Positions 1 to 184 of a stretch of DNA of 219 nt are shown one piece after another. The DNA is from Escherichia coli (GTDB lineage Bacteria; Pseudomonadota; Gammaproteobacteria; Enterobacterales; Enterobacteriaceae): assembly GCF_003334785.1 (NCBI RefSeq), contig NZ_QOWV01000095.1; one strand, given 5' to 3'. Position 1 is the stretch's first letter, and each line of letters opens with the position of its first letter. A program made the translations under genes and the position numbers. A model generated the notes under the pieces. It was not told where the DNA came from, searched no databases, and saw nothing but the letters and a program-made list of their open reading frames with translations.

Positions 1-34
1 TAGGCCGGATAAGGCGTTCACGCCGCATCCGGCA
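1..34 (-). repeat. REP element, Y-like (GCCGGATG type), copy 1; left end possibly truncated by the window edge
   Basis: Reverse complement of 1-33 reads gccggatgcggcgtgaacgccttatccggccta, the classic E. coli REP sequence. Imperfect palindrome with outer arms gccggat (4-10) and atccggc (27-33). Confidence 0.9.
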
Positions 35-47
35 GTCGTGCGCAGAT

Positions 48-83
48 GCCTGATGCGACGCTAACGCGTCTTATCAGGCCTAC
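48..83 (+). repeat. REP element, Z-like (GCCTGATG type), copy 1
   Basis: Plus strand reads gcctgatgcgacgctaacgcgtcttatcaggcctac. Imperfect palindrome with arms gcctgat (48-54) and atcaggc (73-79) and inner arms acgc/gcgt, ending in the REP-typical ggcctac tail (77-83). Confidence 0.9.
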
Positions 84-100
84 AAATTCCCGCGCCATCC

Positions 101-135
101 GTAGGCCGGATAAGGCGTTCACGCCGCATCCGGCA
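101..135 (-). repeat. REP element, Y-like, copy 2 (complete, including the terminal G at 101)
   Basis: Identical to copy 1 shifted by 101 bp. Reverse complement of 101-134 reads gccggatgcggcgtgaacgccttatccggcctac. Confidence 0.9.
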
Positions 136-148
136 GTCGTGCGCAGAT

Positions 149-184
149 GCCTGATGCGACGCTAACGCGTCTTATCAGGCCTAC
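149..184 (+). repeat. REP element, Z-like, copy 2
   Basis: Identical to 48-83 shifted by 101 bp. Confidence 0.9.

Follow-up and report, generated by a model that had tools for sequence, protein, structure and literature searches.

Neighbouring REPs in the 219-nt stretch of Escherichia coli DNA analysed here (the window) can pair extensively with one another, which raises the question of whether this pairing is a selected property of the array or simply follows from the way in which the array is built. The window is an internal piece of the BIME-2 array annotated as REP31 in K-12, an array that lies in the spacer of the tandem gene pair mhpE-mhpT; REP31 is listed at MG1655 374931-375366 as ‘Tandem’, mhpE/mhpT (Harris, 2026, supplement, bioRxiv 10.64898/2026.03.23.713779). 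We found it in the mhpE-mhpT spacer in 3/3 genomes examined, with both genes on the window minus strand. The strand presented in the preliminary description is antisense to these flanking genes, the mRNA sense being the minus strand of the window. At 100% identity the window occurs in 2 of 5,426 complete genomes, and related copies are present in all of them, at a median of 32 places. The best explanation overall, which we consider likely to be correct, is that this is the REP31 BIME-2 array, that its inter-REP complementarity is a by-product and that the local hairpin is the maintained unit.

The window comprises 2.17 exact copies of a 101-bp unit (1-101 is identical to 102-202, and 203-219 to 1-17), so that every feature is present twice. 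Within each unit, a plus-strand y REP headed at its 5′ end by GTAG is separated by a 14-nt spacer from an inverted z2 REP, after which comes a 17-nt linker. The first y-type REP (1-33, plus strand) retains only TAG (1-3) of its GTAG head, which is cut by the window edge; its core palindrome occupies 4-33 and forms a stem (4-17/20-33) with a 2x2 internal mismatch, which is the first hairpin of Rfam naRNA4. It is followed by the tail-to-tail y/z2 spacer of 14 nt (AGTCGTGCGCAGAT, 34-47), by the first z2-type REP (48-83, minus strand, read on that strand as GTAGGCCTGATAAGACGCGTTAGCGTCGCATCAGGC), with its core at 48-79 and CTAC, the complement of GTAG, at 80-83, and by the head-to-head linker of 17 nt (AAATTCCCGCGCCATCC, 84-100). 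In the second copy, the y-type REP (101-134, plus strand) has a complete GTAG head (101-104) and a core at 105-134, the 14-nt spacer (135-148) is a 100% identical direct repeat, the z2-type REP (149-184, minus strand) has its core at 149-180 and CTAC at 181-184, and the 17-nt linker lies at 185-201. A third y REP on the plus strand (202-219) is represented by its GTAG head and 5′ arm before being cut by the other window edge, and gives a truncated naRNA4 match at 205-219. The exact 101-bp tandem repeat is absent from the preliminary description.

By definition, a BIME-2 element combines a y REP with an inversely oriented z2 REP (Ton-Hoang et al., 2012, PMC3333891), and its REPs are imperfect palindromes of 30-40 nt in which a conserved GTAG precedes the stem foot on the 5′ side. 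The plus strand of the window carries GTAG at 101-104 and 202-205, and CTAC, which is GTAG on the minus strand, occurs at 80-83 and 181-184. The y stem (GCCGGATAAGGCG...CGCCGCATCCGGC) contains 12/14 Watson-Crick pairs and the z2 stem (GCCTGATAAGACGC...GCGTCGCATCAGGC), which is read on the opposite strand and hence inversely oriented, contains 12/14 together with one G.U pair. Both stems carry a two-base mismatch: in y, A11A12 faces G25C26, and in z2, G55C56 faces T71T72, where the G55.T72 pair could wobble in RNA. What we take to be the y and z2 consensus underlies this type assignment in part, besides the Rfam RF02564 alignment and the type names of Ton-Hoang et al. (PMC3333891). The array as a whole is tandem, with a period of 101 bp, 4.4-5.4 units and 97% matches, and is extragenic between the mhpE and mhpT coding sequences. 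Structurally it does not differ from BIME-2 arrays, of which it is a member: common to both are inverse y and z2 REPs, the GTAG head, the 2-nt mismatch, short linkers, near-identical tandem units, an extragenic site and a strain-variable copy number.

Two pairings between the arms of adjacent REPs had been reported, and all four of the segments concerned are present letter for letter. Positions 70-83 (CTTATCAGGCCTAC) pair with 101-114 (GTAGGCCGGATAAG) at 13/14 Watson-Crick positions across the 17-nt linker, with A76.G108 as the sole mismatch, while 21-33 pairs with 48-60 at 11/13 positions over the 14-nt spacer, with mismatches C23.A58 and C30.T51. In extended form the inverted repeats cover 14-34/47-67 (21 nt, 81%) and 67-83/101-117 (17 nt, 88%), each recurring one unit on. 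The first corresponds to an inter-REP helix (helix A, 14-67) formed by the 3′ arm of y (14-34) and the 5′ arm of z2 (47-67), with 17/21 Watson-Crick pairs around a 12-nt loop; it includes 21-33/48-60 and has a second copy at 115-168. In the second (helix B, 66-118), the z2 3′ arm with CTAC (66-83) pairs with GTAG and the y 5′ arm (101-118) through 15 Watson-Crick and two G.U pairs of 18, around a 17-nt loop; it includes 70-83/101-114 and has a second copy at 167-219. When the window was shuffled 500 times with its dinucleotides preserved, a 13/14 inverted repeat within 20 nt arose in 0.4% of cases, and the window itself has 18 sites that match at 11/13 or better, compared with a mean of 0.11 in the shuffles. 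The comparison of folding energy with shuffled controls, which the preliminary description had proposed as a check, gave RNA MFE z-scores of -7.25 (plus strand) and -10.2 (minus strand) for the whole window against 200 shuffles, none of which was as good (0/200). The pairing is therefore real and non-random. Comparison of the arms likewise bore out the view that Y- and Z(2)-type REPs alternate in orientation, neighbours being inverted homologues.

Neighbouring REPs pair because a REP is almost palindromic and the one beside it is an inverted homologue, and the inter-REP complementarity is an arithmetic by-product of BIME-2 architecture rather than a separately evolved structure. When the 14-nt arms of y are compared with those of the reverse-complemented z2, differences are found only at stem positions 4 (G-C versus T-A), 11 (G-C versus A-T) and 14 (T-A versus C-G), and at each of these both sides have changed so that the intra-REP pair is kept. 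The same three positions give rise to the inter-REP mismatches A76.G108, C23.A58 and C30.T51, to which A20.C61 is added in the extension. The differences between y and z2 are thus compensatory inside each REP and mismatched between REPs, which argues against selection for inter-REP pairing. Bases that differ between the REP types yet remain complementary had already been marked in the Figure 1 legend of Ton-Hoang et al. (PMC3333891). If only the 14-nt core arms are compared, inter-REP pairing (11/14) does not surpass intra-REP pairing (12/14), and the inter-REP helix owes its extra length solely to the GTAG/CTAC heads and a handful of bases beside them. The bases of the conserved 2-nt stem mismatch (AA opposite CG), on the other hand, do find partners in the inter-REP helix, since the adjacent REP is a copy in inverted orientation.

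The preliminary description also held that the array offers mutually exclusive folds, and their coexistence is thermodynamically correct. The unconstrained MFE of the window, which uses nested long-range inter-REP helices, is -112.6 kcal/mol on the plus strand and -131.4 kcal/mol on the minus strand. The four local REP hairpins of the window give -84.6 and -86.4 kcal/mol, respectively, whereas the four arm-to-arm helices as originally described give -68.0 and -77.0 kcal/mol; these are weaker than the four intra-REP hairpins on both strands, which counts against their having been selected. At the level of single doublets, the whole y:z2 hairpin lies ~1-5 kcal/mol from two separate REP hairpins. 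For the y..z2 doublet, local versus long-only folds amount to -41.9 versus -36.3 kcal/mol (plus strand) and -42.7 versus -41.9 kcal/mol (minus strand), and for the z2..y doublet to -42.4 versus -41.5 kcal/mol (plus) and -48.3 versus -53.0 kcal/mol (minus). On the mRNA-sense strand the head-to-head doublet consequently favours the long hairpin by 4.7 kcal/mol; the advantage on the minus strand arises from G.U pairs, which are C.A mismatches on the other strand. With DNA parameters, the long form of the head-to-head doublet is slightly preferred (-24.3 versus -23.6 and -28.2 versus -26.3 kcal/mol). Against our best explanation, long-range folds win clearly at equilibrium, in the window and also in the whole spacer, for which the mRNA-sense MFE is -417.5 kcal/mol compared with -318.1 kcal/mol for local pairs only.

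These energies could be read as the signature of a conformational switch, in which the array toggles between local hairpins and long hairpins or cruciforms and thereby regulates mRNA stability, termination or supercoiling. The long-range helices of the MFE, with z-scores of -7 to -10, are in keeping with such a switch, as is the fact that local and long folds are near iso-energetic both in the window and among 172 strand-doublets from the family survey described below (long minus local: median -0.2 kcal/mol, IQR -4.9 to 4.3). This near-degeneracy is, however, generic to the REP family and not specific to the locus. In addition, the local-to-long direct path has a barrier of 15-22 kcal/mol, a heuristic upper bound that ignores helicases, the degradosome and strand-invasion routes. 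Combined with the usual prefactors, such a barrier implies refolding times far beyond mRNA lifetimes, and since the 4-nt loop of each REP closes upon transcription, local hairpins would form first and then persist. Long inter-REP folds are therefore probably kinetically disfavoured in RNA. For cruciforms, inter-REP loops of 12-17 nt are unfavourable for extrusion, which also counts against a switch. RNA products of REP325, a related array, step by single hairpins, which likewise speaks against a switch.

To ask which of the two kinds of helix is maintained in the family, we scanned reference genomes with GTAGGCCKGATAAGRCG, which yielded 120 loci (~1 Mb), mostly from Citrobacter werkmanii and E. 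albertii; the survey covers these two species. REPs were called with an outer-stem regular expression fixing 12 bases, with and without a folding filter, the scan being anchored on one REP head. An asymmetric internal loop in the Citrobacter REPs means that a fixed 14-nt register misses most of them. The regular expression returned 283 REPs, and in these the intra-REP pair at position 4 is Watson-Crick in 90% (G-C 162, T-A 82, C-G 8, A-T 4; n=283), compared with 47% expected under independence. The inter-REP pair at position 4 is Watson-Crick in 17% of 86 adjacent doublets, in which the intra-REP pairs reach 93%. With the folding filter applied, the corresponding values are 92% for intra-REP pairs, 15% for inter-REP pairs and 94% for intra-REP pairs within doublets.

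To assess covariation, the four arms of 25 different doublets were aligned without gaps and compared with 500 shuffles. Intra-REP covariation amounts to 0.248, compared with 0.183 in shuffles (0/500 reach this value), with double changes in 9/28 pairs. Inter-REP covariation is 0.199, compared with 0.178 in shuffles (37/500 reach it), and is thus marginal, not absent; only two inter-REP pairs show double changes, both of which involve orientation-linked internal-loop bases, and the inter-REP position-4 pair is formed in 4/25 doublets. The stem-mismatch columns (8-21 and 9-20) are mostly or wholly unpaired in the 25 doublets, and the same bases are paired away in the inter-REP alignment columns 20-37 and 21-36. 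Covariation across other genomes therefore backs the intra-REP stems and not the inter-REP helix, contrary to what selection for inter-REP pairing would predict, and what evolution maintains is the hairpin of the single REP, including the GTAG head and the mismatch of 2 nt in the stem.

Partner swapping pointed in the same direction. When partners were exchanged within the same species and orientation, the long hairpin of the swapped doublets was 7-10 kcal/mol more stable than that of the real ones, in 4/4 classes and in 20/20 permutations of each, and median long minus local energies are +1.1 kcal/mol for heterotypic and -9.7 kcal/mol for homotypic doublets among the survey strand-doublets (n=172). 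Because swapped partners pair better, neighbouring REPs are preferentially of unlike types, and inter-REP pairing is weakened. That real neighbours are less complementary than swapped partners, and that refolding is estimated to face a barrier of ~15 kcal/mol or more, further argues against selection for inter-REP pairing. For the conformational switch, the preference for unlike neighbours costs the long hairpin ~10 kcal/mol, and together with the marginal inter-REP covariation and the barrier this leads us to regard a switch as quite unlikely.

The alternation of y and z2 types might itself be under selection, holding each doublet at a tipping point between local and long hairpins, as the deficit of 7-10 kcal/mol in real neighbours and the median difference of about 0 kcal/mol between the two folds would allow, although we give this only a small chance of being true. 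On that rather improbable reading, the local hairpins, which are relevant to TnpA(REP) and exonucleases, would stay accessible while long perfect palindromes, which E. coli does not tolerate, would be avoided; equally doubtful is its further element, that an occasional long hairpin in single-stranded DNA would drive the gain and loss of units. If type alternation is selected, mhpT read-through would be tunable by the copy number of the array.

The long hairpin has a precedent in the REPINs, which were defined as inverted REP doublets forming hairpins in single-stranded DNA or mRNA, with E. coli K-12 included (Bertels & Rainey, 2011, PMC3116915). The array shares with them inverted REP pairs that can fold into one long hairpin in ssDNA or mRNA, as our long-only folds predict, and ordered tandem clusters of nearly identical units were also described there. 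In a REPIN model, the long-hairpin y-z2 doublet in ssDNA would be the replicative or transposition unit of RAYT/TnpA(REP) and the array would be several of these clustered together. The substrate of TnpA(REP) is a BIME and not a lone REP, and in models the enzyme can add or excise BIME units (PMC3333891); identical tandem units, variable copy number and the preference for the long head-to-head hairpin with DNA parameters would also fit. In K-12, rayT adjoins REP19 (Harris, 2026, supplement; PMC3333891). However, binding and cleavage by TnpA(REP) require the REP's own stem mismatch, the repair of which abolishes activity (PMC3333891), and the long hairpin pairs precisely those bases. Whereas compensatory changes reportedly keep the long hairpin in Pseudomonas REPINs (PMC3116915), the doublets here are heterotypic, with built-in mismatches and marginal covariation, they are less complementary than random partners, and compensatory changes maintaining the long hairpin were not seen among the 25 aligned doublets. 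Gain and loss of units could arise equally from slippage or from unequal recombination between the 101-bp repeats. Taking these points together, we judge the REPIN model unlikely to explain the array, and prefer the reading in which the local hairpin is the maintained unit.

A further possibility is suggested by Rfam RF02564 (naRNA4), which is the y-z2 unit of REP325 and matches the window at 3-80 and 104-181 with 85.0 bits on the plus strand and 62.7 bits on the minus strand, both above the gathering score of 59.5; the window unit aligns over all 77 consensus positions. In the model of Qian et al. (2015, PMC4550694), y-z2 units are processed into RNAs of ~77 nt that join HU in bridging REP cruciforms and condensing the chromosome. 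REP325 and the array analysed here share a multi-unit y-z2 organisation between tandem genes (PMC4550694; Rfam RF02564) but differ in locus and linkers and in the number of elements (12 hairpins there, 11 or 9 REPs here), and the higher-scoring naRNA4 orientation is here antisense to mhpE and mhpT. RF02564 also matches all units of the array, as well as arrays in Escherichia albertii and a second REP cluster, located between fghA and yaiL; it is a generic BIME-2 detector. A stable HU-cruciform-naRNA4 ternary complex and REP-REP Hi-C contacts were both not found, and the nucleoid is unchanged on deletion or overexpression of REP325 (Harris, 2026, bioRxiv 10.64898/2026.03.23.713779). A nucleoid RNA function for these units is therefore highly improbable. 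The consensus structure of RF02564 consists of two local hairpins, the fold that we regard as the maintained one. Matches to microRNA families in a permissive Rfam scan scored 14-24 bits against gathering scores of 44-100 and were dismissed as hairpin noise.

The full array contains 5.4 units in XL10-Gold and 4.4 in the two other genomes examined (11 or 9 REPs), arranged as a degenerate first unit of 99 nt, two or three identical 101-nt units (among which the window lies), a unit carrying three substitutions and, at the end, a lone REP. Using the spacer and both gene ends as a query, we sampled 60 genomes evenly down the ranking and observed locus spans of 1101, 1000, 901, ~800, ~698 and ~598 bp. 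Steps of ~101 bp imply about 5.4 down to 0.4 units per genome, the lowest copy number (~0.4 units) being found in roughly half of the 60 sampled genomes. This polymorphism agrees with the observation that BIME copy number at a locus is strain-variable while copies within a locus are well conserved (PMC3333891). RRS elements, 222-bp GC-rich repeats considered for their similar size, are located near dusC and lysO and are G-quadruplex-dependent (PMC11194060), and were set aside. The array begins 48 nt past the mhpE stop codon (stop at 3385-3387, nearest REP core end at 3336, in L001 coordinates), beyond the limit of 15 nt or less downstream of the upstream stop codon that has been used for translation-linked REPs (quoted in PMC12306157); 96 nt separate the other end of the array from the mhpT start codon. 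No intrinsic terminator (GC-rich hairpin followed by a U-run) was detected in the array on either strand, the REPs being followed by CAGUCG... or CUACAAAUUCC and not by a U-run, and a crude scan of the mhpE-mhpT spacer revealed no sigma-70-like promoter.

All of the in vivo roles that we infer for the array at this locus are based on sequence and on analogy with better characterised arrays. REP325 is a 12-hairpin array between the tandem genes yjdM and yjdN, where expression of the downstream gene is decreased 8-10-fold in a partly Rho-dependent manner (Harris, 2026, bioRxiv 10.64898/2026.03.23.713779); it also stabilises the upstream mRNA, and its product ladder differs by hairpins. By this analogy, and given that the scans described above revealed neither U-tract terminators in the array nor sigma-70-like promoters in the spacer, the array may act both as an attenuator and as a stabiliser. 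On the mhpE-to-mhpT transcript, which corresponds to the window minus strand, each REP would fold locally during synthesis and become kinetically trapped. The array might then present a barrier to 3′-5′ exonucleases on this transcript and could, as with REP325, bring about partial attenuation with the help of Rho and so uncouple mhpT from mhpE, the strength of both effects presumably being set by copy number. The mhp genes are silent in the absence of inducer.

On single-stranded DNA, the REP hairpin with its GTAG and mismatch would be the form bound by TnpA(REP), an enzyme that needs both the GTAG and the stem mismatch of the individual REP and for which a perfect palindrome abolishes binding (PMC3333891). 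The alternative long hairpins may matter mainly in this context, by favouring slippage and template switching, which would explain both the 0.4-5.4-unit polymorphism and the record of the locus as a hotspot for amplification junctions. A REP cluster near lac is reported to account for ~20% of the rearrangement junctions in one study, which attributes this to its secondary structure (Lin et al., 2011, PMC3161906), and Figure S1 of that study presents a predicted structure of the mhpE-mhpT REP array with amplification junctions marked. The locus is the same, but that work concerns DNA template switching in stress-induced amplification and not RNA folds. Of the junction microhomologies of at least 9 nt in Table S1 of Lin et al. 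(2011), 13/25 are verbatim substrings of the window, including the segment at 70-83 quoted above and, on either strand, the 36-nt y REP at 100-135. By analogy with other BIME-2 elements, the array in duplex DNA is likely to be a gyrase site: gyrase cleavage is enriched at BIME-2, which contains preferred cleavage sites, and BIME-2 elements are possible topological barriers. In the part of the gyrase Topo-Seq supplement that was covered, mhpE and mhpT do not appear.

The element and the idea of an inverted-doublet hairpin are both already known, from REPINs (PMC3116915), BIME-2 (PMC3333891) and the structure figure for this very array (PMC3161906), and as REP/BIME arrays, REPINs and the structural potential of the locus have all been published, the observation of inter-REP pairing matters little in itself. 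Our analysis adds a reason against over-reading such complementarity, namely that the single-REP hairpin is conserved and that unlike neighbours weaken the long hairpins. The equilibrium MFE of tandem quasi-palindromes points to long-range structures that are probably kinetically inaccessible in transcripts. Similarly, the naRNA4 model picks up BIME-2 units in general, whichever the strand, and a match to it is no evidence of an sRNA gene. Finally, the polymorphism of 0.4-5.4 units between mhpE and mhpT constitutes a natural allelic series for testing the terminator/stabiliser model of REP arrays.

Unit-by-unit comparison of the mhpE-mhpT array in three E. coli genome loci (L001 of XL10-Gold, 2800-3347; L002 and L003, both 2901-3347) revealed that the array is graded along its length. 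The first unit, of 99 nt, is degenerate and has 2 nt missing from its y REP, in the penultimate unit the 3′ arm of the z2 REP has the substitution G79A and the linker has two changes, and the inner units are identical to one another. XL10-Gold has one extra identical unit compared with L002. In L003, an MG1655-like genome, unit 2 carries two substitutions and the window is therefore not exactly matched there. About 2 kb from the array, the interval separating fghA from yaiL contains a second y-z2 REP doublet (L001 697-774, minus strand), which gives an Rfam naRNA4 match of 79.6 bits; a REP block near yaiL was likewise marked by Lin 2011 (PMC3161906).

Related REPs were recovered by the reference-genome scan. 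An E. albertii BIME-2 array (L080 6754-7095) contains the same REPs as the mhpE-mhpT array but has shorter linkers, and its period is 92 bp rather than 101 bp. The y-type REPs of Citrobacter werkmanii (loci L010-L079, for example L015, L030 and L052) have an asymmetric internal loop in which AA lies opposite GCC (...CGCCGCCATCCGGC), and stem position 4 of their partner REPs is G-C, T-A or C-G, with compensation inside the REP every time. The REP at 172-211 of locus L072 (GTAGGCCGGATAAGGCGCGTCAACGCCTTATCCGGCCTAC) has the GTAG head and a CTAC tail without a stem mismatch, forming a perfect palindrome, and should not be bound under the rules for TnpA(REP). Complete enterobacterial y-type REPs were also observed at L006 5540-5574 and L007 2896-2930, in contigs of a MAG labelled Pseudomonadales; these contigs are probably enterobacterial and mis-binned. 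The matches in L008 and L009, from Bacteroidaceae and 'Proteobacteria' MAGs, have no 3′ arm and appear to be chance hits.

A scan of both strands of the 678-bp mhpE-mhpT spacer (L001 2707-3384) detected no sigma-70-like promoter. Expression of mhpT may rely on transcription that reads through the array, or on a promoter that departs from the consensus; the literature searched yielded no paper on this point. The sole terminator-like site of the region, an 8-bp stem followed by a T-run on the minus strand (L001 2672-2652), is located outside the window within the first codons of the mhpT coding sequence, and probably arose by chance, given that 0.7 such sites are expected from shuffles. A rut (Rho-binding) peak is present on the minus strand of MG1655 at 375401-375492 (data of Delaleau et al. 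2022, tabulated in Harris 2026, Table 15), 35 bp from REP31 and antisense to the mhpT 5′ region. This strand corresponds to the plus-strand sense of the window. The peak hints at Rho termination of antisense transcription running into the array.

At 3-80 and 104-181 of the window, either strand scores above the gathering threshold of the Rfam model RF02564 (naRNA4), since a y-z2 pair in inverted orientation becomes z2-y when read from the opposite strand. Automatic annotation would call an sRNA gene at these intervals whichever strand is considered.
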